This document shows, piece after piece, positions 14,693-30,243 of a stretch of DNA of 64,000 nucleotides. The stretch comes from Candidatus Heimdallarchaeota archaeon (GTDB lineage Archaea > Asgardarchaeota > Heimdallarchaeia > Hodarchaeales > Hodarchaeaceae). Positions within the stretch are counted from its first letter, which is position 1, and each line of letters starts with the position of its first letter. Location: NCBI GenBank assembly GCA_020353515.1, contig CP070695.1, positions 1,399,637 to 1,463,636 of the forward strand. The letters are read 5' to 3'. The notes beneath the pieces were generated by a model. It was not told the DNA's origin, made no database searches, and worked only from the letters and a program-made list of their open reading frames with translations. The translations under genes were made by a program, and so were the position numbers.

Positions 14693-16729
14693 ATGAAAAG
14701 GATGTCTAGCTTAGATATTTATGCTATTACTAAGGAATTACAAGGATTAGTAGGATATCGTGTTGATAACATCTATCGTGACATAACAGATACATTCTAC
14801 CTTTTCAAATTCAAAGGTAAAGGCCATTTAAAGAACCCATTTCTCTTAATTGAACCGGGAATACGGATCCATTTGACCGAGATGCAACATTCAGTTTCAA
14901 AACCTCCTTCTGACAAAATTTTAGCAATGAGGCAGCATCTAAAGGGAACTGATTTACTAAGTATTCAACAAATCGATTTTGATCGTTTGGTAGTATTAAC
15001 CCTGAAAGGAAAACAAGAATATAGGATTTATATTGAAATTTTTGGTAACCGACCAAATTTCATTGTTGTAGGCGACCAAAATCGTGTAATATTAGCAACT
15101 TGGTACAGAAAAATGCGTCATCGAGATGTACTCCCAGGAAAGGAGTTTGAATTTCCACCTAGTAGAGGGAAATCAATATTAGATATATCTTACGAAGAAA
15201 TACAACAAATAATTGAAGAAAATAATTCGGAAGATGAGCAGATTGTGAGAATGTTAGCTAAGAAAACGGGAGGAGGGGGTCCCCTAATGGAGGAAATCTT
15301 AGCTAGGTCAGATATAATTAAAACAACAAAAACCCAAGAAATAAGTGACAAAGAAGTCAATCAAATCTTTAATTCCATTAAGGAAATAAAAAAGGATCTA
15401 GAAAATCCAAAACCAACATTAATTGTTGACTCAGATGATACACCGTTATCATTTCAACCTATTGAGTTTAAATCAATAACAGGAATATCTAAAAAATACA
15501 ACAACTTTTCTTCAGCAGTAGATTCTTATTATTCCAATATTACTCCAAAAAGGTCTGTTGATCTAAAACAACACGATCGGGAAAAGAAGAAACTTCTCAA
15601 AGTTTTAGATTCACAGAAGAAAGCAATTATTGATTTTGAAACTAAGAAAAAGAAGTATAAGGACTTAGGAGACAAGATTTTTCTCCATTTAAATGAGATT
15701 GAAGAACTATTAACTACAATTGTGGCTGCTAGAAGAAATAACATTTCATGGTCAGAAATTCAGATAAAATTAGTGCAAGCGAAAAACGAAGGTAGGCCTT
15801 CGGCAAGGATATTCGATAAAATCATCCCTGATCGAGGACTAATTCACTTAACACTCGAAACAGAATCGATTGAGGTAGACTTCAGAAAATCAGCAACTGA
15901 AATAGCAAATGAATATTATGAGCGGGCAAAAAAAGCAACCAGGAAAATTTTGCCCGCTAAGGAAGCCATACTTGAAACTGAGAAAAGAATTAGTGTTCTT
16001 GAAAAAGATATTTCCGAACAACAGTTTGCTGAGAGTTTTACTCTAAAAAGAAGAAAGAGAAAATGGTATGAAAAATACCACTGGACAAAAACTGTTAATG
16101 GATTTTTAATTATTGGTGGTAAGGATATCCGAAGTAACGAGGAAATAGCTAAACGTCGAATGAAAAAAGATGACCTCTTCTTTCATGCAGAGTTACGTGG
16201 GGCACCTTATACCATTTTGATTCGCGATTCTAGTAGTGAAAACGTCACAGATAGTGATATTGCCTCAGCTGGGCTCTTGGCAGCTGCTTTTTCAAGTGGT
16301 TGGAAAGCTGGATATGGTGCTGTGGATGTCTATCATGTACCTGCAGAGAGTGCCAGTTTTACCGCGCCTAGTGGTGAGTATATCCCTAAGGGTGGAATAA
16401 TGGTTCGAGGAACGCGTAATTATCTTAGAGGTGTTAAAATGGCCCTAGCAATTGGAGTTAAAATAGGGGAATCCAATGCTTTGGTAATATATGGTTCAGA
16501 AGAAGATGTTGAATCAGAGAGTCCGATTTCCATAATTATTAAACCTGGGGCGGTATCAAAAGGAAAGATCGCCAAACAGATCCAAAAAATCCTAATTGAA
16601 AAAACAGAAAATCTTGAAGATAAAGCCAAAATACGTGGCATTGATTTTAATGATTTAGTCAGAGCCATTCCACACGATTCAGTTATCACTGAAGTGAGGT
16701 ATAGTGATTTGGGTGAGAAAAGAGATTAG
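14693..16729 (+). CDS. rqcH: Ribosome rescue protein RqcH / Rqc2-NEMF (NFACT family)
   Basis: MSSLDI N-terminus, FDR, coiled coil, KWYEKYHW, GGKDIRSNE, FHAELRGAP, PSGEYIPKGGIMVRG. Confidence 0.9.
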   Translation: MKRMSSLDIYAITKELQGLVGYRVDNIYRDITDTFYLFKFKGKGHLKNPFLLIEPGIRIHLTEMQHSVSKPPSDKILAMRQHLKGTDLLSIQQIDFDRLVVLTLKGKQEYRIYIEIFGNRPNFIVVGDQNRVILATWYRKMRHRDVLPGKEFEFPPSRGKSILDISYEEIQQIIEENNSEDEQIVRMLAKKTGGGGPLMEEILARSDIIKTTKTQEISDKEVNQIFNSIKEIKKDLENPKPTLIVDSDDTPLSFQPIEFKSITGISKKYNNFSSAVDSYYSNITPKRSVDLKQHDREKKKLLKVLDSQKKAIIDFETKKKKYKDLGDKIFLHLNEIEELLTTIVAARRNNISWSEIQIKLVQAKNEGRPSARIFDKIIPDRGLIHLTLETESIEVDFRKSATEIANEYYERAKKATRKILPAKEAILETEKRISVLEKDISEQQFAESFTLKRRKRKWYEKYHWTKTVNGFLIIGGKDIRSNEEIAKRRMKKDDLFFHAELRGAPYTILIRDSSSENVTDSDIASAGLLAAAFSSGWKAGYGAVDVYHVPAESASFTAPSGEYIPKGGIMVRGTRNYLRGVKMALAIGVKIGESNALVIYGSEEDVESESPISIIIKPGAVSKGKIAKQIQKILIEKTENLEDKAKIRGIDFNDLVRAIPHDSVITEVRYSDLGEKRD

Positions 16730-16753: not shown

Positions 16754-17395
16754 TTAAAAAATATCTGGGTCAGAGGATTGATCTTCTTCTGGTTGAGATC
16801 CTATACATGTTGGACATAATGTATAACCATTTGCACTTTTAAGGCAATCTGAATAATTACTACAATCATCACAAAATCCTTCAAACTCAATCAATACTCT
16901 TTCATTGTCATCAACAGACTTTTGAATAGTTTCCAACAACAAACGCTCTCTATGAATTCGAAGTAATCCTGGGGCAAATTTAAGGATATCATTAGTTGAA
17001 ACGATACCTAAGGGCTGGGAATAATCATTACCTTCAACAACTAAAATTCGTTCTATATTCTCTTGTGCCATCATTAACATTGTATTCTCTAAGGTTTCAT
17101 CCGCCGAAACAAAAGAAACAGGTTTACTCATGACGTCATCTACTAGAACAATACCAGGATCTAACGCACGACCCACAACTCGTTGAATAATATCTCCCTT
17201 TGTTATGATTCCTTCTATTTGGTTGTTTTTAATAATGATTGAACCAACCTGATTTTCAACCATTAATTTGGCCGCTTCAGTTACAGGTTGATTACTTGGC
17301 ATTGATATAATCCCTTTAGTTTTCTTTGATACTTCGCCTACTGACTGTGATTTTAGCAGGTTACCTATTAAAACCTCTCTTTCGTTATCAATCAA
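16754..17395 (-). CDS. CBS-pair protein with C-terminal zinc ribbon
   Basis: EAAKLMVENQVGS, GIITKGDI, GIVSTNDI; GFCDDC...LCPTC. Confidence 0.85.
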   Translation of the reverse strand: MIDNEREVLIGNLLKSQSVGEVSKKTKGIISMPSNQPVTEAAKLMVENQVGSIIIKNNQIEGIITKGDIIQRVVGRALDPGIVLVDDVMSKPVSFVSADETLENTMLMMAQENIERILVVEGNDYSQPLGIVSTNDILKFAPGLLRIHRERLLLETIQKSVDDNERVLIEFEGFCDDCSNYSDCLKSANGYTLCPTCIGSQPEEDQSSDPDIF

Positions 17396-17639: not shown

Positions 17640-20600
17640 TTAGATTAGTGTAGTAGGACGAGGCCCCTTTTCAAATAATAAACGTTTATTTAATTCAACC
17701 AATTCAACCCAAGAATGACAATACTCGGAAATATCTGAGTTGTATTGGTCTTTTAGTTGATTAACAATTTGTAAATATCTAAGAACCCATCCTTCGGATA
17801 ATGTTAATCCGATAGTCCGACGATGGCAAACGGGACAATTTGAGAGAGGAACACGTCGGAAGGTTGTATTACATGTATTACACCGTACTGGCTGTAGAAA
17901 GAAACGTGTCATAGAGGTTGTTATCTTTGGTAGGAAATCATTTACCAATATATCGTCAACAAACTCTCCTTCCTTCACCCCCCGAATACGACTGAGAACT
18001 CGTAATTCTGTCTCTATTTTAGAAACAATTTTACTTTCACGAAAGAGATTTTCGAAATTATAACGAGAAACATTGTCAATGTTGTGGGAAATTGGTAAAG
18101 GAGGCTTAAGAAATGACATTTTATAGGATAATAACTCCTCTTTTAAGGGATTTTCGATTAGATTGTTAAAAAATGAAAGATTCATTAATATTGAATCATA
18201 ACTGGCATAAACAGATGTTTCTTCCCATTCATCAGATAGATTGATGATAGCAGGCACATCCATTGTTCCTCCACGTAATGTAGGAACAAACTCCATTGAA
18301 AAATTAAGTAAGACATCTAGAAGGAGTGTTATTGAATCAATATCTCCATTACAATTTCGTGTTTTGAGTATATGCCACAAGGGATGAGCATAAATGACAT
18401 TATTTTCAGTATACCCGATAATTCTTCCAATGACTGCAACCATTGAAAATGGAGACAATCCAACGATTAAAAAGCCGGTAATGTCATTCAAAGAATTGAT
18501 TCTATAATAAGGAGGTAGTTCATATAAAAATGTTAATTCATCATCAATAAACTTAGATAAATCGACAAGAAATTCGCCCGCTGTTTTACTTACTATTACA
18601 TCAAAAGGATTGATTTCTATGAGTTGATCATCTTGTATCAAGTCATTACCAAATACATCATGAGTATAACCAAGTCTTAGGAGATCCTCGACCGAGCTAT
18701 GAACTTCACTAGGTGTGAAATAGGTAAGAGGTGCATTAGTTTGGTCAAAACGGCTCGTTCCATCTTTGTAAACAAAAAGATTGTGTTTTGCTCGTAATAT
18801 TCCTTTGATGATGTGTTCTGGTATTCGATTCTTACTGTTTAGAAAAGATACTCCCTTAATTTTTGTTAAATCATCTATTCCTGTTTTTTGAACACCAGAT
18901 TTTATTATTCCTGCAACATTAATCGGTTTAATTCTTGCAGGAAAGGCATATTGACCACACTCTCTACAGTTTCTTGTGTCAGATATATGTCCAGTCTTAC
19001 ATACAAATTGCTGTTTTGTTTCTTCTAAACATTTTGGACAAAAGGTAACGTATGTAGATTCCCCGCATGTTGTACAAAATCTTTCTGATATTTGAATATC
19101 GACATTAGCTCCCTTTTTTACCTTCAAAAGATTTCTTTGGGTGCCCCCATGAGAACCGATGGGAAAAAGAATATGCGAAGGCGGATTAATATGTCGAGGT
19201 TCTGATTTTTCGACTCTTATTATTTTTAGTCCAATTCTTCTATGACATAGTGATCTTATAGGGATTTTAGTAAGCTCTTGAACTACTTTCTCAATTCCTA
19301 CAGCTGAATCCTCTGATAAAATCTGTGTAATTTCCTCCTCTTTTCCTCTCAATGAATGGATAAAGGGCTGAAATCGTTCTGATTGAATATTACTACCGTG
19401 AATTATAAAAGGGGCACCTAACTGTCTAAGTATTACCTTTAAATCATCATCATCGGGGAGTAAGTCTTCGTTAGTGCTATCTATTTTTTGAATTAATCGT
19501 ATGAGATCACTAATAGCAATTTCATTCCAGTTAAAAGAATAAAATGGGTGGATTGGGACTTCAGTTATCCTGCTTAAGTTAAGAGCAATTTCTGGTGATG
19601 GTTGAAAACGTGTTGGCTCACTCAATAATTTCTCTAGCTCAATAGGAGAAATCCGTATAATATTTGCTAAATATTCAATCGATCTGAATTTTGAGGAAAT
19701 CATACGCTTAACTTCTTGACTCCACCATTCCTCAGTCCAAGCAGACAATTCAATAGTTTCTGTAGCTGGAATATCATCTGGAGAAAGTAAAATGTCTCCC
19801 ATTTCCCAGATCTGAGTTACATCACTTTCTACTTCAATGATTCTGGTTAAGGATTCAATCCTCTCACTAGAACCATCTTTAAATTCAACTAGAGGACCTG
19901 TTAGGGTTGAAACTGGGAAAACTGTAAGGGGTCGTTCCATGAAATCAATTTTAATGCTCGTGCCTGGAGACATCATTTCTGAAAGATACATTGTCACTGG
20001 ATGAACTCCCGCGGCACCTTGGCCCGTGTTACGTGAATAGCCATATCTTAATCTAAATCCTCCAGGTTTTCCTGATCTTGAGAGTAAAGGCTGTGTCCCA
20101 CGAACCTCGTTTCTTCCAAATTCATGTTTTTTCCTTCTTATCCCTTCAAAAGGGGGTACAAGCCATTCCCACTCAGGAATACCTGAAGCTAGACGAAGAT
20201 GAGCGATTGAGTTGATATTATCAATTATTTTATCAAAAGCAACACACATACCCATTCGCAATCTATTTGTCATATTTGGTAAATTTCGATATTTCTTAAC
20301 TTCAATTCGTTCATACGCTTCCCCAGAAATCTCAACACCGATATTTTGTACTAAAAAGTTGATTAAGTCTTTTCGTAAATCCCAAGAACGATCATTCATT
20401 TTAAAGTAAATTTCTATTTCTTCAACATATCTATTTATCAGTTCTGGGGACGGATTATACCGATTAAGATGTAAAACATGTCGTATATAATCAGCAATTA
20501 GAACTACTAGTCCAACAGTCTCTCCAGTTACATAACGTACTGTATTGGAAAAATATATGGTTAAGTGGTTTGATTTAGAACCAATTGAAATCTTTGGAAT

Positions 20601-20960
20601 GCTTTCATGAGGAACTGAGATCAATCCTTGACTTAAAATCACTAAAGAGCTGTGTAGCGCCATTAGTATAAGATTCTCACGAGTATCTTTTACAAATCGT
20701 CCATTAACAATCTGTTTGGCAATATCTGCAGCTAAAAGAAGAGGACTTTCATGCCAAGAGAGATTTGAAGGGAGATATTCTTCTAATTTCGGAATATTTA
20801 GAATTGCTCCTATCTTCGCTTTTGAAGTAAAAGTAAGTTTGGATTCTATTTTGGATTGAGGGTCGAGCTTTCGGGCTCTTGCTTGTGTTGCTAATTGAAC
20901 TTGAGTTTTAAGGACGTTTTTTATATTTTGAAGATATTCTAGAAACTCTTTTTCTATCAT
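17640..20960 (-). CDS. polC: DNA polymerase D large subunit (DP2) homolog, strongly diverged, predicted catalytically inactive
   Basis: ARARKLDP, GGFRLRYGYSRNTG, KDGTSRFD, LGYTHD, RGGTMD, C-terminal CNTC..RRVPL..CPVC identify DP2; the catalytic motif reads KTRNCNGDID instead of KRRNCDGDED. Confidence 0.85.
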   Translation of the reverse strand: MIEKEFLEYLQNIKNVLKTQVQLATQARARKLDPQSKIESKLTFTSKAKIGAILNIPKLEEYLPSNLSWHESPLLLAADIAKQIVNGRFVKDTRENLILMALHSSLVILSQGLISVPHESIPKISIGSKSNHLTIYFSNTVRYVTGETVGLVVLIADYIRHVLHLNRYNPSPELINRYVEEIEIYFKMNDRSWDLRKDLINFLVQNIGVEISGEAYERIEVKKYRNLPNMTNRLRMGMCVAFDKIIDNINSIAHLRLASGIPEWEWLVPPFEGIRRKKHEFGRNEVRGTQPLLSRSGKPGGFRLRYGYSRNTGQGAAGVHPVTMYLSEMMSPGTSIKIDFMERPLTVFPVSTLTGPLVEFKDGSSERIESLTRIIEVESDVTQIWEMGDILLSPDDIPATETIELSAWTEEWWSQEVKRMISSKFRSIEYLANIIRISPIELEKLLSEPTRFQPSPEIALNLSRITEVPIHPFYSFNWNEIAISDLIRLIQKIDSTNEDLLPDDDDLKVILRQLGAPFIIHGSNIQSERFQPFIHSLRGKEEEITQILSEDSAVGIEKVVQELTKIPIRSLCHRRIGLKIIRVEKSEPRHINPPSHILFPIGSHGGTQRNLLKVKKGANVDIQISERFCTTCGESTYVTFCPKCLEETKQQFVCKTGHISDTRNCRECGQYAFPARIKPINVAGIIKSGVQKTGIDDLTKIKGVSFLNSKNRIPEHIIKGILRAKHNLFVYKDGTSRFDQTNAPLTYFTPSEVHSSVEDLLRLGYTHDVFGNDLIQDDQLIEINPFDVIVSKTAGEFLVDLSKFIDDELTFLYELPPYYRINSLNDITGFLIVGLSPFSMVAVIGRIIGYTENNVIYAHPLWHILKTRNCNGDIDSITLLLDVLLNFSMEFVPTLRGGTMDVPAIINLSDEWEETSVYASYDSILMNLSFFNNLIENPLKEELLSYKMSFLKPPLPISHNIDNVSRYNFENLFRESKIVSKIETELRVLSRIRGVKEGEFVDDILVNDFLPKITTSMTRFFLQPVRCNTCNTTFRRVPLSNCPVCHRRTIGLTLSEGWVLRYLQIVNQLKDQYNSDISEYCHSWVELVELNKRLLFEKGPRPTTLI

Positions 20961-20966
20961 TTCCTC

Positions 20967-21689
20967 TCACGATAAAATATGAACACCATTCATCAAGGTT
21001 ACATTAAGTATGCCCAGATTATCTAGGTTGTTTTCCCCCTCAAAGTAATATATGCCAGTATAGTCTGAACTGGAAGAGGGAATAAGATAGTGAGTAGTAT
21101 TAAAGATATAGATTGAAGAAGCATCTACGTTTTCGAGCTGTTTTCCTCTTGATTGTTGAATGATAACTTTATTACCCTGAATTTCAACACGTCCAATAAA
21201 AACAATAGAAAAGGCTTCATCAATGGTGAACGTAGACGAGACAGCACTCATCCTCAAATGCAGTTCTGCTTGAATCTGACTAGAATAAACAGTTCCGAAG
21301 CTGTCTGATACATTCCCATAAGGAGCTAATTGTGCGCTAAGATTGAAGTTGTGATTAGATAATTGGAATTCTGAAGTAACCCCTCTCGCAGAGTAGAGTG
21401 TTTCGATTCCATTTAAAAAATCATTTATTCTAGTGATGGCTGTACTGGGAGTCAATGTTGTACCATTCTCAGAGTATTCAGTTAAAATTAGTTCCAAGTA
21501 ATTCTGAATTTCACGTTTTGAGTCCAAGTATGGTTCTCGTAAGGTTTCCCGATCAAATTCGATTCTTTCGGCTCCAAGATTCATCAAAGCAGAGGTCATC
21601 ATTACAACATAAACAGCTATTAACATCGTTGCTAAGATGAACATCTGACCTCTATGTTTTTTCGAGTATTTGAATCCTGGAATTCCCAT
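20967..21689 (-). CDS. Pilin-like protein (class III signal peptide)
   Basis: KKHRG|QMFILATMLIAVYVVM: basic residues, G|Q cleavage site, hydrophobic helix. Confidence 0.75.
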   Translation of the reverse strand: MGIPGFKYSKKHRGQMFILATMLIAVYVVMMTSALMNLGAERIEFDRETLREPYLDSKREIQNYLELILTEYSENGTTLTPSTAITRINDFLNGIETLYSARGVTSEFQLSNHNFNLSAQLAPYGNVSDSFGTVYSSQIQAELHLRMSAVSSTFTIDEAFSIVFIGRVEIQGNKVIIQQSRGKQLENVDASSIYIFNTTHYLIPSSSSDYTGIYYFEGENNLDNLGILNVTLMNGVHILS

Positions 21690-22205
21690 CTAGAATTTCT
21701 CCCATAAATATAGTTGTACCAGATATTGCGTAGTATATTGCCCAAACGTGGCTGAAGTAAACGAACCTAAATGGTAATTCGCCACAACTCCTTTTCCTCC
21801 TTGTTGGAGTGCAACAAGGGCTGTTGAAGACCCAATAACGCTAAAAAAATCTTCATTAATTGTACCATTAACTATTTCATGAGCAATTAGGGCATAGTCA
21901 ATATTTTTAGACACTATAGTAGTAATATATTCATTCAGTAGATTTTTGTAACTTAAAAATTCCTGTTCATATCTAGTGTCTCCATAAAGATATATAACAG
22001 GTCTTAATAATCCTGCTTCATCTGAAGCTGCAAGAATATCTGTTGCTGTTTGATCCAAACCAGTAAGATTTGAATAAGACGATAAGGTCTGATTTGTTGC
22101 CCCTATCAATAGAAGAGCAAGAACAAGCATTAATGCTACTGAAACAAGTGTTTCTGCAATCTGTAGTTGTCCTCTATGTTTATTCATTTGTTCTATTTGC
22201 TCCAT
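21690..22205 (-). CDS. Pilin-like protein (class III signal peptide)
   Basis: MNKHRG|QLQIAETLVSVALMLVLALLLI; the true start may be the second Met. Confidence 0.75.
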   Translation of the reverse strand: MEQIEQMNKHRGQLQIAETLVSVALMLVLALLLIGATNQTLSSYSNLTGLDQTATDILAASDEAGLLRPVIYLYGDTRYEQEFLSYKNLLNEYITTIVSKNIDYALIAHEIVNGTINEDFFSVIGSSTALVALQQGGKGVVANYHLGSFTSATFGQYTTQYLVQLYLWEKF

Positions 22206-23353
22206 AAGGTTAATTGACAGCTCATTAACGTACCTCTGACAATAATGGGATAGAATTTTGATAACATTGATTTTGTTCTGGTACCAGGAATTTCTTCTCC
22301 AAATACCTGGTTAAATATCCCACCAGTCGAAACACGATCAAGAATCACAGGATATGATCCTATTTTTACTTGATACTGGTTATCAGTTATAGCAATACTG
22401 AGAAAGGCAACCAAACCTTCATTCGGAATTGAAACTGTCTCATTGCCATACGAGGCTGTTTCTAAATTTATAGTTTTTTTCGAGTAGCCCGATGTGGTAT
22501 TTTGATATATGATAGAGAGAAAATGCGAATCAGGACTTATTGGTAAATTATCTGATGCTAAAAAACTAGTAGAATTGATACCTCCTCCCCAAATAGTTGT
22601 ACTTGAAGATGGACCAATGAAAACTACTTCAGAAGTTGGATCATTGAAACTCCAGTTCATACACCAAAGAGGACCTTTTTCTACAATGATAAATACTATA
22701 TGTTCTCCCCCTGGGACATTTTCAGTGGGATTTGATAGCTGGAGAGAAGTTTCTCCGTTGGAATTAGTTAATGTTGCTCCTTCAGGAATCACATTGCCAT
22801 TAGTCAGATCAATGGTAAAGAAATTAACTAAAGCATCTGCAATAGATATATTATAAAGATTTTTTACATTTACTTGAGCGAAATTTGTAGAAGAAGCATT
22901 TACTTCTGCATTTAATAAAGGATAGAATCCTAATCGGAAATTAAAATCCCTATCTAAACCGATTGTCTCCTTAAGAGTGTCATAATCAAACATTGTGTAT
23001 CCTGATACACCAGATGAATCCTTAAACGTTAATCGCGCTATTTTTGCACTATCTAAAACAAGATATGACTGTGCATTACTATCCGCTAGGCCAAAAGATG
23101 CTGGAAGTGATTGATGATAGCCCCAATCAAGATCTCCATCCTCAAAAAGTAATTGACGACCTAAGATATCTAACTCCTCATAGGTTATGATTTCCCTTGA
23201 ACTGGTATTTATACCTGTTTGTACATTAATAACAAGTAAAATTAACTGCGATAACATAAGTAAGAAGAGAAAAAGACTCACAACAAAGTCGACAGCTCTA
23301 ATCTGTCCACGGCGTCGTTTTTTAAGTCTTGGAAAGTTCATCTTGTTACCCAT
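22193..23353 (-). CDS. Large minor pilin-like protein (class III signal peptide)
   Basis: KKRRRG|QIRAVDFVVSLFLFLLML followed by a beta-rich N/S/T-rich domain. Confidence 0.75.
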   Translation of the reverse strand: MGNKMNFPRLKKRRRGQIRAVDFVVSLFLFLLMLSQLILLVINVQTGINTSSREIITYEELDILGRQLLFEDGDLDWGYHQSLPASFGLADSNAQSYLVLDSAKIARLTFKDSSGVSGYTMFDYDTLKETIGLDRDFNFRLGFYPLLNAEVNASSTNFAQVNVKNLYNISIADALVNFFTIDLTNGNVIPEGATLTNSNGETSLQLSNPTENVPGGEHIVFIIVEKGPLWCMNWSFNDPTSEVVFIGPSSSTTIWGGGINSTSFLASDNLPISPDSHFLSIIYQNTTSGYSKKTINLETASYGNETVSIPNEGLVAFLSIAITDNQYQVKIGSYPVILDRVSTGGIFNQVFGEEIPGTRTKSMLSKFYPIIVRGTLMSCQLTLWSK

Positions 23354-23383
23354 TTATCGATGTAAATAATCCATTTAAACTCG

Positions 23384-23839
23384 CTAAGATATGACATCCT
23401 CGGTAGAAGAACCAACATTCGCGACCTCAAGTTGAATAACTATCTCTTGGATACGATCTTTTAATTCTAACATTGTTGTTTCCAATTCTGTCAATTGTAA
23501 TCCCTTCTCTAAGAGAGAGGTGGCTTGTGAAATTAGTTCATCAGCTTTCTGGGTTTTATCTGTCTTCATTGTTGAGGTTAGCTCTGTTAAATTATTCATT
23601 TTTTTCATAATTTCGGAGATATTGTTTTCAATTTCAGAGATTCTTTTTTCCAGAGGGGCTAGATCAACTTCAACAGGACCAGCTTGAGGAGCAGATACAG
23701 ATTTTAAGGCTGGAGATTTGGGTGTTGCTCCACCTGTTCCCATCCCCTGAACCATCAAAAACTCCATATTGGTTAGTTTATCTTCTAGAGCTGAAACTTT
23801 ATCTAGTAATTCTGTGAGCATTTTTTCTTCTTTTCCCAT
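23384..23839 (-). CDS. Cytoplasmic coiled-coil protein within pilus operon
   Basis: Two heptad-rich segments separated by a G/P/A linker; no TM or signal peptide; 23-30 bp from neighbours. Confidence 0.65.
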   Translation of the reverse strand: MGKEEKMLTELLDKVSALEDKLTNMEFLMVQGMGTGGATPKSPALKSVSAPQAGPVEVDLAPLEKRISEIENNISEIMKKMNNLTELTSTMKTDKTQKADELISQATSLLEKGLQLTELETTMLELKDRIQEIVIQLEVANVGSSTEDVIS

Positions 23840-23862
23840 GAAAATCGACCTCGAATTACATA

Positions 23863-24861
23863 TTATACCAGACCAAATAGTGAGAAAATCTGTGAGATAA
23901 TATCTGCTATTAGGATCTTAAAGATCACGTAGCAAATTATTAAAAGAATACAGGAATATTTTAGTCCAAGATTTGCATTTCCTTGCCCCATCTTACCTGC
24001 TATGAGACCTGCAAATATTGCTTCAACAACCATTAAATGGAAGAAGATTAATTGCATTCCTGCAACATTAAATGGCAATGCTGCTGTTAATGGTTGTTCT
24101 TCTGATACTGCTTCTACCATGTTAAGAGCTAAGGTTTGGAAGAAGGAAATGAGTAAAATGATCATCACTAACGAGAAGACGATATATGAAACAAAAATTA
24201 TCCAAGTGAATGGTTTCATCGACCCAAGACGTTCCCTTTTTAATCCAAGAACTTCTGATACGTGTCTATGAGCAGAATCGAATACATCCTCAATGGCTCC
24301 TCCTGAACGTTCAGCCTCTAAGATTAATAGTGATGTTCTTCTCATCAGGGGAGTATCTGTAATTTCCGTTAAACTTCGAAGTGTTTTACTAAAAGGGATT
24401 CCCCAACTGATCTTGGCTGCCATTTTTTTCAATTCAGGAGTAAGAGCTCCGTAATTGTGCTTACTTGCTGACATGATTGCCCTTGGCAATGGAAGACCAG
24501 TCTTTTGAGCGTCAGAAACCTCACGTAACAAGGATGGGATATTTTCATCAATGTTGTCACGCCATTTTTGGTCGGAATGATATGCCCAAGCTGGAATAAC
24601 AATTAAGACAAGAATAGCTACAACAGTTATGTCAATAACATCAAAGAAATTGACAATTGGATCTCTGATAACCTCACTTACTTTGTCAAGATAACTGTTA
24701 TCCATTGGATCTCCCTCTTCTTTTATGGGAGGTTCTACTGGAAAAATGTGATTTAAAACTGGGATATAAAAGTAGAAAAAGGCTGTTCCAGATGCTATTA
24801 TGAAGAAAAGTATCGATATAATCCAGATCCACCGTTCACGTTTTTTTGTTAATTTTCCCAT
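23863..24861 (-). CDS. Type II secretion F-family / TadC-FlaJ-like pilus platform protein
   Basis: IPSLLREVSDAQKTGLPL, YGALTPEL, ISWG, EAERSGG, FAGLIAGKMG; several TMs. Confidence 0.88.
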   Translation of the reverse strand: MGKLTKKRERWIWIISILFFIIASGTAFFYFYIPVLNHIFPVEPPIKEEGDPMDNSYLDKVSEVIRDPIVNFFDVIDITVVAILVLIVIPAWAYHSDQKWRDNIDENIPSLLREVSDAQKTGLPLPRAIMSASKHNYGALTPELKKMAAKISWGIPFSKTLRSLTEITDTPLMRRTSLLILEAERSGGAIEDVFDSAHRHVSEVLGLKRERLGSMKPFTWIIFVSYIVFSLVMIILLISFFQTLALNMVEAVSEEQPLTAALPFNVAGMQLIFFHLMVVEAIFAGLIAGKMGQGNANLGLKYSCILLIICYVIFKILIADIISQIFSLFGLV

Positions 24862-24882
24862 TGCTTGTAACCTCTTTTTCTA

Positions 24883-25791
24883 CTAAACCTCTCGTGAAAT
24901 CGTAGAGATCAACAAAATCATTACAACTAGCAAAATAGGCATTATTAAGTAAGTTAATAGCAACATTATGACAGTTAAAATTTCTATCTCTGGTGAAATA
25001 ACAGCAAGAATTGCGATAATAACAACAAAAAACAAAGGAGCAACCACTCCTAAAATCATAAATATTTCCGCTAATATTCCTAACTGCTCAATGAACTCCT
25101 TAGTTTCCTCTTCCTTCATTTTCATTAAAGCTTTTGCTTCAGCAGAGAGATAAAAGGTTAAATCTCCTCCACTTGTGACCGTTGCTGACATTCCATCTAA
25201 AAATTTAGAAAATCGTTCGGAAGGGGATCTTTCACTTGCAGTACGTAACGCCTTTAGAATGTCATATCCAAAGATTTCGATATCCCTTGTAATTCGCTTA
25301 CTCTCTTTAGAGATTTCTGGAGCAACTGAGGCTTCTCCTGCGAGTGAATAAAACAATCTGTTTGGAGGGACTCCTGAACTCGACATAGCGGAAAGATATG
25401 AAGCAGTAGAAGGTAATCCTGACTCTATCAATATTTTACGATCAGCGGCCTTCATCTGTGGCCAATAGAGGAATGGTAGATATGCAACAATGCTTATTAT
25501 TACCCCAATGACTATTCCAAGTAAGATGGACGGAAAAAGCTGATTTTGAATATTTGCAGCTTGAAGCAATAGTATACTGGTTGTTATAATGATAAAAGAC
25601 AAAATTCCCACAAGAATCGAACTAAAAATGGCACTTCCTAGATAAGCACGAACAGAAATATCCATACCTGCTTTTTTTAGACTTGTATTTAGTCTTTCAA
25701 AGCGTCCTTTTTCAATCCAGGGTTCAAGAAATCTGCCAAATCTGAGATAACCGACTCTTCTAATGACCTTACTCACAAGTAAACACTCCAA
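24883..25791 (-). CDS. Type II secretion F-family / TadB-FlaJ-like pilus platform protein
   Basis: LKKAGM, LPSTASYLSAMSSSG, GYDILKAL, SPSERF, SGGDL; several TMs. Confidence 0.88.
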   Translation of the reverse strand: MECLLVSKVIRRVGYLRFGRFLEPWIEKGRFERLNTSLKKAGMDISVRAYLGSAIFSSILVGILSFIIITTSILLLQAANIQNQLFPSILLGIVIGVIISIVAYLPFLYWPQMKAADRKILIESGLPSTASYLSAMSSSGVPPNRLFYSLAGEASVAPEISKESKRITRDIEIFGYDILKALRTASERSPSERFSKFLDGMSATVTSGGDLTFYLSAEAKALMKMKEEETKEFIEQLGILAEIFMILGVVAPLFFVVIIAILAVISPEIEILTVIMLLLTYLIMPILLVVMILLISTISREV

Positions 25792-25797
25792 ATGATC

Positions 25798-27306
25798 TTA
25801 AATTGCTTTTAACTCTCTTTTTGCACGATCAACTGTTTCAAGAGCACTCTGGTAATAACTGTTAATTACTTCAGACACCTGAGAAAAATGGGCTAACTTC
25901 TTTTTAACCATCCACCTTAAGATGGTTTTTCTGCGCTCAAGTTCATCGAAAACTTGGGCCTCAGTCAAACCTTGAGCTTCTTGAATACCTTCTAAGGCGT
26001 AGGATCGGCCATAGTTGATAAATGCATCCTCACGAGCATTCCATCCAAAAACTTTGTTCGTTATCAATTCTGTCGTTACAGGATCTATTCCTACGATTTC
26101 AGTGCATTCGATCACTCGTCGTACTTGTTTGTCACCACGACGGACCTTTCGAAGGACGAGAAGGATATTTAAGGTTTGAATTAAAGTTCTTGGAATATTC
26201 ATTGGTTCATTCTCTAGACGTCTAATAGTTCCAGTTACGCTATCACCGTGAATTGTCCCCATTCCAGTGTGACCAGTAGCCATTGCTTGAAAGAGATTAT
26301 ACGCTTCTGCTCCTCGTACTTCTCCAACAAAAAGGTAATCTGGTCTTTGGCGAAGTGCTGCACGTAGAAGGTCATACATTGAGACTTCTCCTCGACGAGT
26401 TCCATCAGCTTCACGCCCTCCATAACCTTCTCGTGCCACAGCAGGAATCCAGTTTTCATGGGGAATATGAAGTTCTGCTGTGTCTTCAATCGAAACGATT
26501 TTCATTCCAGGTCTGATATACATAGCGAGACTATTGAGGAGCGATGTTTTTCCTGCTGCTGTACCTCCTGCAATAACAATGGAATTTCTATTTTCTAAGA
26601 TATACCATAAGAACGCAGCCAAATCCTCATCAATGGTGTTAAAAATTACCATATCTGTTATTGTTAATGGATCAGATCGAAATTTTCTGATAGTAAAAGT
26701 ACTCCCTCGCTGGGTTACCTCACGACCATAGGTAAGCTGAAGTCGGCTGCCATCTGGTAATGCAGCATCTAGTAAAGGTCTCGCTACACTGATATGGCGT
26801 CCAGCTCGTTGAGCTAATTTGATGATAAATGCATCCAAGTTGTCCTCCTCCTCAAATTTAACATTTGTTTGGATACTTTCAAATTTCCGGTGCCAAATAT
26901 AAACAGGAATTCCTACTCCATCACAAGATATATCTTCGACATTGTGGTCCTTTAGCATTGCATCAATCGGACCGAATCCGACGAAATCACGAGTAATATG
27001 ATAATTAATCTTATCGAAGGTTTTCTCATCTAATTTTAGTCCATAATCTTTAGCAATTCTAATTACCTTAGATCTAAGGTAATCACGTGCAACCTCAGGA
27101 TTTTTAAGGACATTGAAATCTACATCCAATTCTTCTTCGAGAATATTTTTAATCATATCTAAGATTTCTTTCTCTTTAGTGCTTAAAGGAACTTCAACAA
27201 CAGTATATTTAGTCTGTTTGGTTTCAGGGTCGGTTGCAACCAACGCATAACTGAAGGGGGGGATTAATGGATATGTCTCTCGAATTAGACTACTTGATTC
27301 TGCCAT
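25798..27306 (-). CDS. Type II/IV secretion ATPase (VirB11/FlaI/TadA family)
   Basis: VEDISCDG, DAALPDGSRLQ, FTIRKF, GGTAAGKTS (Walker A), SIEDTAE, LRQRPD..VGEVRG.EA (Walker B), TGH..GTIH. Confidence 0.95.
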   Translation of the reverse strand: MAESSSLIRETYPLIPPFSYALVATDPETKQTKYTVVEVPLSTKEKEILDMIKNILEEELDVDFNVLKNPEVARDYLRSKVIRIAKDYGLKLDEKTFDKINYHITRDFVGFGPIDAMLKDHNVEDISCDGVGIPVYIWHRKFESIQTNVKFEEEDNLDAFIIKLAQRAGRHISVARPLLDAALPDGSRLQLTYGREVTQRGSTFTIRKFRSDPLTITDMVIFNTIDEDLAAFLWYILENRNSIVIAGGTAAGKTSLLNSLAMYIRPGMKIVSIEDTAELHIPHENWIPAVAREGYGGREADGTRRGEVSMYDLLRAALRQRPDYLFVGEVRGAEAYNLFQAMATGHTGMGTIHGDSVTGTIRRLENEPMNIPRTLIQTLNILLVLRKVRRGDKQVRRVIECTEIVGIDPVTTELITNKVFGWNAREDAFINYGRSYALEGIQEAQGLTEAQVFDELERRKTILRWMVKKKLAHFSQVSEVINSYYQSALETVDRAKRELKAI

Positions 27307-27449
27307 TTATTTGTAGCTCCTACTTTTTTTCTCTTCTAGATCCAAGAGTGATGTTTTTTTTTAGATTATTTTTTCCTAGGTAAATATTTCCTACTGATAA
27401 TATTTTTTTGATTTGGATAAAGGTAATCATAACTTTTAGTTTAATCTAC

Positions 27450-27902
27450 TCAAGAAATGGTTATTACGATATTATTTCCGTTTTTTTCTATATGTAAGGC
27501 CAATAGAGTATTTACACTTTCAAATATTGAATCTGATGTTTCAATAATGTATTTTGGGGCCACTGTAAAGATTTTTATCTGATCAACGTCTCCATTCGAG
27601 GAAAAACCGTGTAAAATGATCTGATTGTCAGAGGAGTTATAGATCTCAATAGAATACGGAGACATTTCCCCTATGACAGCTGGTAGTTCTAGTTGTTGTT
27701 CGATCAACTGACTACCGTCTGTTGAAAGAAGTAGTGATTGCTGAATTTGTTTTTGAATTAAATCAAGAATTCGTGTCATTTCCACATCTGCAATATTCTC
27801 CCGAAATTGGTCGCTTAATGTTAAGAACATGAGATTTGTGATAATAACCATGTTCAAACCAAGAATAAAGATAACAATAAATGTGATATATTGAGATGCC
27901 AT
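27450..27902 (-). CDS. Pilin-like / single-TM accessory protein of pilus locus
   Basis: MASQYITFIVIFILGLNMV N-terminal hydrophobic helix, LELPAVIG..Y.I pattern; lies between pilin and ATPase; no basic leader. Confidence 0.55.
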   Translation of the reverse strand: MASQYITFIVIFILGLNMVIITNLMFLTLSDQFRENIADVEMTRILDLIQKQIQQSLLLSTDGSQLIEQQLELPAVIGEMSPYSIEIYNSSDNQIILHGFSSNGDVDQIKIFTVAPKYIIETSDSIFESVNTLLALHIEKNGNNIVITIS

Positions 27903-27928
27903 ATATTATTCCACGATTTTTGTATTAT

Positions 27929-28870
27929 TTAAGATGTTGAGAGACCTACTTCATATACTAATGTTTGAACCACAATATTGAAGTATTGAAGATTAAGCCC
28001 TTGTATGGTTTGTGTACTCCAAATGGATGTAGTTAATGTTCCTGATGGTTGAGCATTATCCCAAACTAATTCTAAAGCTCCAATTGAGCTGTCTTCTGGT
28101 AAAGTATATGGAGTAGAATAGCTATTATAAGAATGAATTGTAATATGTTGATATTGGCTTCGAATAGCTTCAAAATCCGCCGAAAGCAGGATCAAAAAGA
28201 CCTCAAAGCGTATTTCGGGATCTGGTTGGGTTGAAATAGTTAAATAAATAGATATTCGATAGTTCAATGTTACATGGTGTCTTCTATCATCGAGATGGCT
28301 TAAAGTAAGGTTAGTTAGATCGAGATAATCAGTTGAGGAAAAAGTACCTGAAACAAAAATTGGATCACGAATTTTATAGGGGTCTGGTCCTGTTAAATAT
28401 TTCGTGGTTCCACGAGGAATGACAGCTCTCGGACTGTTATAGGTCCAATCTAGCACTCCGATCGTTAGAAATCCAGTGATATCATCAGTTAAATCTTCAA
28501 ATAGGTTATATACGAGGTTTTCATCTTGATCAAGCAACCTTAATCGATAAGAATATCGTGCAGGATCAAATTCAACCCGGCCAGCAGGTTTATTAAAGAG
28601 AACAGTCCGAAAACCTCCAGGAGCACCACTTTCACTTATCAAGGATTTTATTGTTGTATCCAACTCTAAGAAACTATTACTAGTTGTTGCTATCGCTTCT
28701 TCACTCTGAGCCTGTTGTATATATGGGACAACTTGAACGAAAGTGATCATGACTCCTGTAATGATTAGACCGAATATGATAACTGTCGCTAGAACAGGAG
28801 AAACACCACGTGTTGTCCGAAAAATTGGGTTAGTTTTTAGTTTCAGGTTAGTGATAATAGCTTTATTCAA
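27929..28870 (-). CDS. Archaeal type IV pilin (archaellin/pilin N-terminal-like)
   Basis: RTTRG|VSPVLATVIIFGLII matches the typical (K/R)G|VSPVIA archaeal pilin N-terminus. Confidence 0.85.
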   Translation of the reverse strand: MNKAIITNLKLKTNPIFRTTRGVSPVLATVIIFGLIITGVMITFVQVVPYIQQAQSEEAIATTSNSFLELDTTIKSLISESGAPGGFRTVLFNKPAGRVEFDPARYSYRLRLLDQDENLVYNLFEDLTDDITGFLTIGVLDWTYNSPRAVIPRGTTKYLTGPDPYKIRDPIFVSGTFSSTDYLDLTNLTLSHLDDRRHHVTLNYRISIYLTISTQPDPEIRFEVFLILLSADFEAIRSQYQHITIHSYNSYSTPYTLPEDSSIGALELVWDNAQPSGTLTTSIWSTQTIQGLNLQYFNIVVQTLVYEVGLSTS

Positions 28871-29208
28871 GTTCGATCCCTTTCTATCGTTTTAAATGCA
28901 TAATCACTATAAACAAGTCATTCTTCACGGATATATTATCAAAGATGTAATGATTTAAGGATTTTTGTATTCCCCAGAAAATTACTACACATTCTAAATT
29001 AACTCTTCTAAAGGGCAAAAAAATTCTTGTAAAGAATTAAGGGGAAGCCATAAAGAATTTACTCCAAAGAATAGAAAAGTCTTTCATAAAATTTCCTATT
29101 TTGTTTTATTCCTCAAAAGCAGAAAAGATTTAAGGAGTTCATAGGTTCAAAAAAATGACTTTTCTCAATAATCCTATGAGAGAATCTCCCTCTAAAACTG
29201 GTATGATA

Positions 29209-30243
29209 ATGGCACCGAAGAAAAAAACTGAAACTATTGAAGCAACAAAAACAACAAAAGTTGATAAAACGACTAAAGCTGTGACATCCATTACGGATTT
29301 ACCTGGAATAGGCCCCTCCACAGCTGCAAAATTAGTAGAGGCTGGTTTCTCAACCTTAGAATCCATTGCAACTGTTTCAGTTGGTGAGTTGACCTCAATC
29401 GCAAGTATGGGTGAGAAAACGGTAAAAAAGATAATCGAAGCAGCACGAGAAGCACTTGATATCGATTTTGAAACTGCCAAAACTGTGTTGGCTCGTCGTA
29501 AGGATTTGGCTAAAGTTACGACTGGTAGTCAAAAACTAGATGAACTATTTGGTGGTGGAATTGAAACTGGATCCGTAACGGAGCTTTTTGGCGAGTTTCG
29601 GACAGGAAAAACCCAAATTGCCCACCAACTCTGTGTGACCGTTCAGTTGCCCCGTGAAAAAGGTGGATTACGAGAAAGTGACAATTATCCAAAGGTAGTG
29701 TATATCGATAGCGAAAGCACGTTTCGTCCAGAAAGAATACTCTCAATGGCAAGTCGTTGGCAGGATGAATTAGATGAAGATTTGTTGTTAGAAAACATTT
29801 TACACGGACGTGCTCACAATTCCGATCACCAAATGGTATTAGTAGAAAAAATGATTAAGGATTATTTGCCTACTGAGAATGTTAAATTATTAGTAGTTGA
29901 TTCTTTAATTTCACATTTTCGTGCTGAATATGTTGGAAGAGGGACTTTAGCAACACGGCAACAAAAGCTTAACCAACACATCCACACCATTCTCCGAGCT
30001 GCAGAAATTGGGAATCTAGCTGTCATTGTCACAAATCAAGTCCATGCCAAACCTGACCAATTTTTCGGAGATCCCACCCATCCAGTAGGAGGACATATCG
30101 TTGCTCATGCAGCGCAAACGCGGGTATACCTTCGTAAATCAAAAGGTGAACGTAGAATAGCCCGAATAGTTGATAGTCCTCTCCTTCCTGAAAACGAAGC
30201 AGTCTTTGGATTAGCGGAAAATGGGATTATAGATGTAACATAA
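29209..30243 (+). CDS. radA: DNA repair and recombination protein RadA
   Basis: Hh[14 protein letters not shown], polymerization motif [44 protein letters not shown]. No intein. Track starts at 29155; MAPKKK at 29209 is likelier. Confidence 0.97.

Follow-up and report, generated by a model that had tools for sequence, protein, structure and literature searches.

The closest described case is the Heimdall_B3/LC3 group, reported to be without an active DP2, the large subunit of PolD, and to carry a B-family polymerase (PolB) of group B10 in the same genomes (Kazlauskas, Krupovic, Guglielmini, Forterre and Venclovas 2020, NAR 48:10142, PMC7544198, Fig. 7, Suppl. Fig. S16). In that work, which rests on two MAGs and treats the matter in a brief remark, the DP1 of LC3 is called inactive and that of B3 possibly active. 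The inactive state of DP2 is already published for Heimdall B3/LC3, and the core fact is not new. The inactivated archaeal PolB2 is a similar case, a conserved polymerase homologue with broken catalytic motifs. It belongs to another protein family, however, and co-exists with active paralogs. As for the canonical enzyme, alanine scanning found D956 and D958 critical for polymerisation (as cited in PMC4996933; alanine was tested, not asparagine), and cryo-EM gives N954, D956 and D958 as the ligands of Mg-A (PMC10721889). The roles of the DP1 active-site residues and of the exo-channel residue R1178 are taken from the latter paper.

The window (the whole stretch of DNA that was analysed, 64 kb) lies in a Hodarchaeales (Asgard, Heimdallarchaeia) genome made of one contig of 4.94 Mb, 96% complete, and its features of interest are collected in Table 1. 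The DP2 protein matches all three Pfam domains of the family, the N-terminal PF03833 (2e-42), the central PF24844 (3.6e-70) and the catalytic PF24846 (8.6e-80), the last over positions 4-216 of a 299-position profile only. It does not reach either NCBIfam equivalog cut-off, with scores of 782.3 against 1269 for NF003103 and 687.9 against 702.15 for TIGR00354. Identity to Heimdallarchaeia DP2s is around 30%. The protein falls in the same clade as the Heimdall_B3/LC3 type, with a disrupted polymerase motif in both and, in the same genome, a Pol-epsilon-N-like PolB of group B10 and a divergent DP1. Compared to the P. abyssi DP2 (6HMS, 6T8H, 8PPT), it has the same three domains, Zn fingers I-III, GGFRLRYG and KDGTxRFD motifs and overall length, and its C-terminal domain is predicted here to dock DP1 as well. 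The differences are Asn in place of D956, alterations at R867, APHTSAG, AGPIRSxGGT and other near-invariant columns, the partial catalytic Pfam match, the scores below the NCBIfam cut-offs, the replaced PIP box and a DP1 gene that is not adjacent.

This is the only DP2 locus of the genome. Searches with the DP2 protein and with Pfam PF24846, PF24844 and PF03833 each matched here only, and a second copy is absent from all 24 Hodarchaeales species genomes that we surveyed, 23 of which have exactly one. The gene is thus the orthologous, only DP2 of its genome. The sequence-only reading had called it a paralog and had named a sole DP2 in a complete genome as a refutation. The single copy refutes the paralog part only. 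Inactivation is upheld by a substitution found throughout the order and by the further decay of the motif in sister lineages.

Table 1. Features of the DP2 locus, with positions in the window
Feature	Position	Strand	Basis or remark
DP2 gene, 1106 aa	17640..20960	(-)	sole PolD large subunit of the genome; reading frame without stops
GPRPTTLI tail, replaces the C-terminal PIP box	17643..17666	(-)	comparison of C-termini; clade-specific and conserved
Trp1084, in place of exo-channel Arg1178 of P. abyssi DP2	17709..17711	(-)	alignment
Zn-finger III of the C-terminal domain (C1027, C1030, C1042, C1045), predicted to dock DP1	17826..17882	(-)	clade-invariant; within the predicted DP1 interface
Catalytic loop, residues 859-876 (HPLWHILKTRNCNGDIDS)	18333..18386	(-)	aligns to P. 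abyssi 944-961 (6hms_B)
Asn871 codon, at the position of essential P. abyssi Asp956	18348..18350	(-)	HMMER alignment to 6hms_B
KDGTSRFD motif, residues 732-739, kept	18744..18767	(-)	sequence and clade conservation
Zn-fingers I/II (C629, C632, C641, C644, C654, H658, C665, C668)	18957..19076	(-)	invariant in 36 clade members
GGFRLRYG motif, residues 300-307, kept	20040..20063	(-)	G300, G301, F302, R305 and G307 invariant in the clade
Pilin-like gene, class III signal peptide (KKHRGQ), last of the pilus-like operon	20967..21689	(-)	ends 6 nt ahead of the DP2 start codon (ATG)
Type IV pilus-like operon upstream of DP2: pilin-like genes, T2SSE ATPase, two T2SSF platform genes, coiled-coil gene	20967..28870	(-)	order conserved in Hodarchaeales
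radA, divergent from the pilus operon	29155..30243	(+)	Rad51 Pfam match 1.7e-89; layout kept in 5/5 Hodarchaeales genomes tested

Residues 863-875 read H-I-L-K-T-R-N-C-N-G-D-I-D, and the HMMER alignment to P. abyssi DP2 (6hms_B) pairs N871 with D956, D873 with D958 and D875 with D960, which confirms the RNCNGDID loop and the Asn codon described from the sequence alone. The same description took the first two Asp of the motif as the residues that bind Mg2+. This needs amending, since the cryo-EM ligand set is N954/D956/D958 (PMC10721889) and one of the three is altered here. The triad (NCDGD) is replaced by N869, N871 and D873, and the E-to-I change of the loop falls outside the ligand positions. 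All 73 non-intein canonical DP2s that we retrieved have D-G-D here, in nearly all cases within CDGDED. For proteins of the clade itself, the first Asp position is N in 42 of 45, with one D, one K and one S as exceptions. A sequencing error at this codon is rejected, with the Asn common to dozens of independent assemblies across the clade. The clade shows no variation at H859, P860, W862, H863, K866, R868, C870, G872, D875 and S876 and a conservation of at least 90% at N871, while N869, D873 and D875 are all kept in the genome's own lineage. Few stretches of the protein are as well conserved as this loop, so that some function of it, possibly metal binding, is still under selection.

Outside the loop, the picture given by the sequence-only reading holds. 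Conserved N-terminal motifs are eroded, AGPIRSxGGT appearing as SNTVRYVTGE and TEGxVSAPxEGI as SQGLISVPHESI in the alignment to 6hms_B. The frame, the GGFRLRYG and KDGT.RFD motifs and the Zn-finger cysteines are all intact, as had been stated, and the cysteines are invariant across the clade. The RPTTLI end also proved to be without a PIP box when set against canonical DP2 C-termini, which carry one of the QxxLxDF[FL] type. Of the 209 columns with a conservation of 95% or more among 72 canonical DP2s, the clade keeps 131, loses 54 and is mixed at 24, and many of the lost columns are fixed to a new residue in 37/37 clade members. The exo channel is one such region, with R1178 of P. abyssi replaced by W1084, H1104 by D1008, D1108 by K1012 and N1112 by S1016. 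At the first of these positions 37/37 clade members have W, whereas 95% or more of the canonical DP2s have R. The AF2 model of the full-length protein, built on a 36-row clade alignment, has a mean pLDDT of 63.5 and a pTM of 0.38, with catalytic and C-terminal regions below 50.

The change is a property of the order. No Asp is found at the D956 position in any of the 22 Hodarchaeales genomes with a readable loop, the residue being N in 20 and S in 1, with the whole motif gone in 1. The DP2s of other Heimdallarchaeia families are canonical and match the full Pfam profile. Conservation of the D-to-N exchange among Asgard relatives, raised as a check by the sequence-only reading, is thus seen within Hodarchaeales. 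A nested subclade goes further, with a loop of the form S-C-N-G-[AV]-x-D in which all three Mg ligands are lost. One Hodarchaeales genome of a second family reads FLGAVH in the loop and has lost GGFRLRYG as well, yet its frame stays open over at least 946 aa and the Zn cysteines are kept. Pairwise Nei-Gojobori dN/dS is 0.10-0.14 for DP2 pairs with dS of 0.35-1.3, the ligand-less subclade included, and the gene is under strong purifying selection.

In a FastTree phylogeny the clade is monophyletic with a support of 100, sits on a long stem branch and contains B3_Heim P0032 (CEE45_06820). On account of that stem, the tree cannot place it among the Heimdallarchaeia DP2s. We argue for vertical descent of the Hodarchaeales DP2 from copy number, not from topology. 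Horizontal acquisition of an alien DP2 is not needed, given that each genome has one copy and that the sister families carry canonical ones; the tree itself leaves room for it.

The genome has a single DP1 gene, coding for 539 aa, at contig position 2.72 Mb and approximately 1.3 Mb from DP2. No DP1 gene was found in the window, in line with the earlier statement that none is nearby. DP1 keeps 7 of the 8 nuclease active-site residues. D360, H362, D404, H451, H497, H560 and H562 are kept across 19 species, with one H451-to-R exception, and the eighth residue, N450, is E in all 19, so that GNHD reads GEHD everywhere. DP1 may be a live nuclease, with the N450-to-E change as a reservation. The presence elsewhere in the genome of a DP1 with a nearly intact nuclease site suggests that DP2 probably still belongs to PolD and is not a DNA-binding protein on its own. 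Docking of DP1 by the C-terminal domain of DP2 is also predicted by structure modelling, with a score of 0.90 against 0.00 for the best of 3 controls, runs that share at least 85% of contacts and a partner pLDDT of at least 75. The 0.90 mark is reached by 58/80 solved complexes and 2/110 mismatched pairs. Similar complexes have been solved (6HMS, 6T8H, 8PPT), and the pass may therefore reflect likeness to them and not binding by this copy. In two genomes of the second family (80-85% complete, 760-860 contigs) DP1 was not found with the protein, Pfam PF04042 or a clade profile as queries; if it were truly absent there, DP2 would have a role independent of DP1.

As for other polymerases, three PolBs of the genome have intact exonuclease and polymerase motifs. 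One of them is the B10 PolB, 1432 aa long, whose best PDB matches are catalytic subunits of Pol epsilon (3e-56) and whose motifs are complete (ExoI DIE, motif A DVTSMYPS, motif C ELDTDG). At E <= 1e-30, B10 is present in 21/21 Hodarchaeales and in 0/40 other Heimdallarchaeia. In a further PolB of the genome, neither the exonuclease DxE nor the polymerase DTD motif can be recognised.

We consider it likely that DP2 has lost polymerase catalysis but survives as the large subunit in a complex derived from PolD. The broken polymerase centre together with purifying selection makes a non-catalytic role the best reading, as the sequence-only reading had proposed. DNA synthesis would then be carried out by B-family polymerases instead of PolD. 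The two-barrel cleft, KH domain and Zn fingers of DP2 would still clamp DNA, while its Zn-III and C-terminal helices would still hold DP1. The resulting complex may be a platform for the 3'-5' nuclease of DP1, a scaffold in the replisome, or both, with a remodelled exo channel and with GPRPTTL[IF] at the C-terminus as a new docking peptide that would replace the PCNA-binding box.

Other explanations have to be weighed against this one. DP2 could still be an active polymerase, perhaps slower or specialised, with a non-canonical N-N-D metal site possibly aided by D875. Asn is able to coordinate Mg2+, the loop is highly conserved in the clade (D873 in nearly all of the genome's lineage, D875 in every member), GGFRLRYG and KDGTxRFD are intact and dN/dS is around 0.1. 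This explanation has to face, however, that D956 belongs to the only pair of aspartates found to be essential, that neighbouring invariants are lost too (R867 to T, H838-T839-S840 of APHTSAG, R290, K343, G581 and P583) and that both NCBIfam scores fall short of equivalog level. Moreover, the nested subclade lacks N954/D956/D958 and the sister family lacks the whole motif, with the same selection on both, and therefore the conserved function cannot depend on the triad. We regard an active enzyme as unlikely. The eroded active site, the low identity to Heimdallarchaeia DP2s and the long stem branch would also be expected of a paralog beside an active DP2 or of a decaying pseudogene, and one relative (G009) even has an in-frame TGA at DP2 codon 237. 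Copy number rules out the former, since the single-contig genome has a lone DP2 locus and no genome surveyed in the order has more. The latter is rejected on the intact 1106-aa frame, a dN/dS of around 0.1 and the 131 of 209 canonical columns kept, and we give this pair hardly any chance.

The surroundings of the gene offer another possibility, namely that a dead DP2 was recruited to a job of the type IV pilus-like operon, such as handling DNA imported or exchanged by the pilus together with the divergent RadA. The short gap to the pilin-like gene holds a Shine-Dalgarno-like sequence, GAGGAA. A gap of at most 10 nt and the same gene order are found in 8/8 Hodarchaeales genomes, down to 50% DP2 identity, radA diverges from the operon in every genome tested, and the canonical DP2 genes of other Heimdallarchaeia (n=8) lack these neighbours. 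Yet synteny extends over the whole region of approximately 17 kb and takes in unrelated genes on the opposite flank (NFACT and CBS), so that the conserved order may be general synteny within one GTDB genus-level group. DP1 also lies outside the cluster, and operons of mixed function are common in archaea. A scan for Sigma-70-type promoters and terminators around DP2, a method ill-suited to archaea, gave sites no more than in shuffled sequence. Such a recruitment seems to us quite improbable, and slightly more so the specific version in which the dead DP2 has left the replisome as a DNA-threading end component of the pilus-like operon that receives or processes pilus-borne DNA.

A different proposal is more likely than this last one, although we put it forward only tentatively. 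The dead DP2 and a live DP1 may together act in trans as a non-catalytic module next to the Pol-epsilon-like B10, which would make them a present-day analogue of the scaffold made by the C-terminal half of Pol epsilon and Dpb2. The likeness to the eukaryotic pair (C-terminal half and Dpb2/POLE2) would be one of function, a dead polymerase module that has a structural use and holds a subunit of the DP1 family, next to an active PolB of the Pol-epsilon type. The folds are unrelated, the C-terminal half of Pol epsilon being a PolB and DP2 a two-barrel enzyme, and in Hodarchaeales the dead and live modules are separate proteins. The B subunits differ too, with nuclease motifs kept in Hodarchaeales DP1 and lost in eukaryotes (PMC4996933). 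In a published two-hybrid assay, the B10 C-terminal domain and a Hodarchaeal DP1 did not bind (PMC12680538).

Compared to the report of Kazlauskas and colleagues, the present analysis adds the single copy in a closed genome, the 24 species genomes, dN/dS values and a stepwise order of ligand loss, and also the DP1 motifs kept with GEHD in 19 species, the re-fixed exo-channel residues and the new C-terminal motif. Its value lies in confirmation, breadth and testable detail, because the core fact is already in the literature (PMC7544198). Since the closed genome hides no active DP2 elsewhere, what a polymerase-dead PolD does becomes a well-posed biochemical question. Hodarchaeales are among the archaea proposed to be closest to eukaryotes, which have replaced the catalytic core of DP2 by a PolB but retain a B subunit of the DP1 type and the C-terminal domain of DP2. 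The order may represent an intermediate state that is alive today. Its genomes still code for the PolD holoenzyme, with the polymerase centre switched off and a nuclease subunit that looks intact, and each member has a PolB of the Pol-epsilon type.

The window DP2, the large subunit of PolD, matches all three Pfam DP2 domains and aligns over its full length with the solved DP2 chains of P. abyssi and T. kodakarensis (E ~1e-164). Its scores of 782 and 688 fall short of the two NCBIfam equivalog cut-offs, 1269 and 702 respectively. The protein also covers only positions 4-216 of the 299 in the Pfam catalytic-domain profile; canonical Heimdallarchaeia DP2s cover positions 6-299. The catalytic loop reads HILKTRNCNGDID. 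In the HMMER alignment, N871 (codon 18350-18348) falls on D956 of P. abyssi, whose numbering is used here for canonical residues, with D873 on D958 and D875 on D960. Sauguet et al. 2016 (PMC4996933) name D956 and D958, picked out by alanine scanning of every aspartate in DP2, as the invariant pair critical for polymerisation, and the Mg-A ligands in PolD are N954, D956 and D958 (Betancurt-Anzola et al. 2023, PMC10721889). Therefore, one of three Mg-A ligands and one of two essential aspartates are altered in the window protein. This confirms the active-site Asp to Asn change proposed in the sequence-only reading, and the remaining motif changes and retentions listed there are each as described. 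Its Glu to Ile change is present too, but lies outside the ligand positions.

The same reading took the gene for a paralog. In its own genome, a single contig of 4,943,496 bases that is 96% complete, no second DP2 was found: the window protein, PF24846, PF24844 and PF03833 each match this locus alone, which rules the paralog out. Across the order, surveyed in 24 Hodarchaeales genomes (one per species), a single DP2 was found in 23 and a second DP2 in none.

Features of the DP2 region and of related polymerase loci. Positions are in the window unless a locus extracted from the same genome (L) is named, with its genome position (G000) in brackets
Feature	Position	Strand	Remarks
DP2 gene	17640-20960	minus	uninterrupted 1106-aa frame
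Type IV pilus-like operon	20967-30243, including divergent radA		runs into DP2; pilin-like genes, T2SSE, two T2SSF, coiled-coil
T2SSE ATPase	25798-27306		in the pilus-like operon; 91-97% identical between genomes with DP2 only 50-77% identical
NFACT (Rqc2-type) gene	14693-16729		downstream of DP2; syntenic in 8/8 relatives
CBS-pair protein with C-terminal Cys-rich tail	16754-17395		downstream of DP2; syntenic in 8/8 relatives
DP1 gene	L003:1345-2964 (G000:C1:2720725-2722344)	minus	motif III is GEHD
Dead-looking PolB homologue, 765 aa	L006:1429-3726 (G000:C1:4311189-4313486)	minus	without Pfam exonuclease match, DxE or DTD motifs

A database search returned 44 relatives with 47-89% identity across residues 690-1106, the named ones labelled Hodarchaeales/Hodarchaeota, Heimdallarchaeota or Promethearchaeota, and one Hermodarchaeota. 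Below these, identity falls abruptly to about 40%, where the ordinary DP2s begin. D-G-D occupies the D956-D958 positions in 73/73 canonical DP2s (non-intein only); in this clade the first position is Asn in 42 of 45 proteins, the exceptions being one Asp, one Lys and one Ser. Among the surveyed genomes with a readable loop it is Asn in 20 and Ser in one. The loop is S-C-N-G-[AV]-x-D in a nested, well-supported subclade to which the published B3_Heim protein belongs, so N954, D956 and D958 are all lost there. As for the second, LC3-like family, one of its two genomes has the loop ANGDID and the other FLGAVH. In the latter GGFRLRYG is gone too, while the frame stays open for at least 946 aa, with Zn-finger cysteines present and 23% identity to the window protein. 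Read from these loops, D956 was lost first, with further decay later in several lineages, as expected once a site no longer does chemistry.

One clade protein, on a 6.5-kb Logan contig (P0012), has the loop NCDGDID, where Asp occupies the D956 position and Ile still replaces Glu; this Asp is possibly a single-base reversion. A related single-contig genome (G009) has an in-frame TGA at codon 237 of an otherwise full-length DP2 (RM*MCV, RMGMCV elsewhere). This TGA, a sequencing error or else a break particular to that lineage, accounts for the 868-aa database protein P0014.

In terms of phylogeny, a FastTree of 66 DP2s, seven of them canonical ones from other Heimdallarchaeia, recovers the clade as monophyletic, with a stem of ~1.5 substitutions per site between it and every canonical DP2. 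Because of this long branch the clade is not placeable inside Heimdallarchaeia. One copy per genome makes vertical descent with acceleration the simplest interpretation, of which the tree itself is no proof.

Codon alignments of relatives (Nei-Gojobori) put DP2 dN/dS at 0.10-0.14 where pairwise dS is 0.35-1.3, a range that also covers pairs within the ligand-less subclade. Amino-acid identity between genomes is 50-77%, similar to neighbouring genes. Inactivation of a DP2 held under selection, as previously claimed, is supported. Among 72 canonical DP2s, 209 alignment columns show conservation of 95% or more. The clade, judged on 37 members, retains 131 of these (in 80% of members or more) and has lost 54, the other 24 being mixed. 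Losses concentrate around the active centre: R867 to T, the APHTSAG motif, R290, K343, and G581 with P583 (RMGRPEK). Many lost columns carry one new residue in 37/37 clade members, a sign of altered constraint instead of simple decay. The exo channel, the path bringing the primer end to DP1, contains or adjoins four of these re-fixed columns: H1104 to D1008, D1108 to K1012, N1112 to S1016 and R1178 to W1084. Residues were placed there by alignment to canonical DP2, with roles from published structure work (PMC10721889). The C-terminal PIP box is gone, and the clade has a conserved GPRPTTL[IF] tail instead.

DP1, the small nuclease subunit, is encoded by one gene ~1.3 Mb from DP2. In 19 Hodarchaeales species genomes that yielded a full-length DP1, the metal ligands and essential histidine stay in place (D360, H362, D404, H451, H497, H560, H562; P. 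abyssi numbering), and motif III has GEHD instead of GNHD (N450 to E). One of them (G003) has the variant GERD, altered at the H451 position, alongside a more eroded DP2 loop, CSGNID. Judging from these residues, the DP1 site is under constraint and is plausibly active. The predicted complex of DP1 135-539 with the DP2 C-terminal domain 970-1106 scores 0.90, against 0.00 for the best control; this mark is reached by 58/80 solved complexes and 2/110 mismatched pairs. Runs share at least 85% of contacts, with partner pLDDT of at least 75. Since PolD complexes are already solved, the prediction indicates an interface that looks preserved and stops short of proving that these two proteins bind. 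In the second family (G022 and G023, 80-85% complete), protein, Pfam and profile searches found no DP1; a very degenerate DP2 persists there.

The genome has four PolB genes. Two are ordinary, with DIE, DxxSLYP and YGDTDS motifs intact. The 765-aa homologue is, by its motifs, probably an inactivated PolB, so that the genome would hold two kinds of dead polymerase. The fourth, of 1432 aa, has Pol epsilon catalytic subunits as best PDB matches (3e-56) and intact ExoI, motif A (DVTSMYPS), motif B (KVPLNSIYG) and motif C (ELDTDG); it belongs to the Pol-epsilon-like B10 group of Kazlauskas et al. At E <= 1e-30, B10 is present in 21/21 Hodarchaeales genomes searched and in 0/40 from five other Heimdallarchaeia families, whose DP2s are canonical and often intein-bearing. 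Loss of DP2 catalysis thus coincides with B10 presence. In five relatives (G011, G018, G017, G005, G007) B10 frames run to 1900-2020 aa with the match broken near residues 930-980, suggestive of an intein inserted between motifs B and C.

DP2 comes last in a series of genes on one strand. The others are pilin-like genes bearing class III signals (KxRGQ), a T2SSE ATPase, two T2SSF platform genes, a coiled-coil gene and a further three pilin-like genes, with 6 nt between the stop of the last pilin-like gene and the ATG of DP2. The T2SSE ATPase is conserved unusually strongly. The divergent radA is so arranged in 5/5 Hodarchaeales. A meaningful link between DP2 and this operon might be read from the gene order and gap of at most 10 nt before DP2, kept in 8/8 Hodarchaeales genomes, and from eight other Heimdallarchaeia, where no such operon was found beside canonical DP2. 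However, on the opposite side of DP2 the NFACT and CBS genes are equally syntenic, and the linkage is therefore treated as an unexplained association, a DP2 role tied to the operon being a rival reading of low probability.

An inactive DP2 in the Heimdall_B3/LC3-like group is already published, with DP1 inactive in LC3 and possibly active in B3, and B10 co-occurring (Kazlauskas et al. 2020, PMC7544198). That DP2 is of the same kind as ours, B3_Heim lying inside the ligand-less subclade. A 2025 Asgard replisome study covers Hodarchaeal DP1 and B10, leaves the dead DP2 undiscussed, and reports that DP1 and the B10 C-terminal domain did not interact in a two-hybrid assay (PMC12680538). Beyond PMC7544198, the literature searched gave no further treatment of the dead Hodarchaeal DP2. 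What is added here is its single copy in a closed genome, its order-wide breadth and the stepwise decay of its metal site, together with DP1 motif retention, re-fixed exo-channel residues and a new C-terminal motif.
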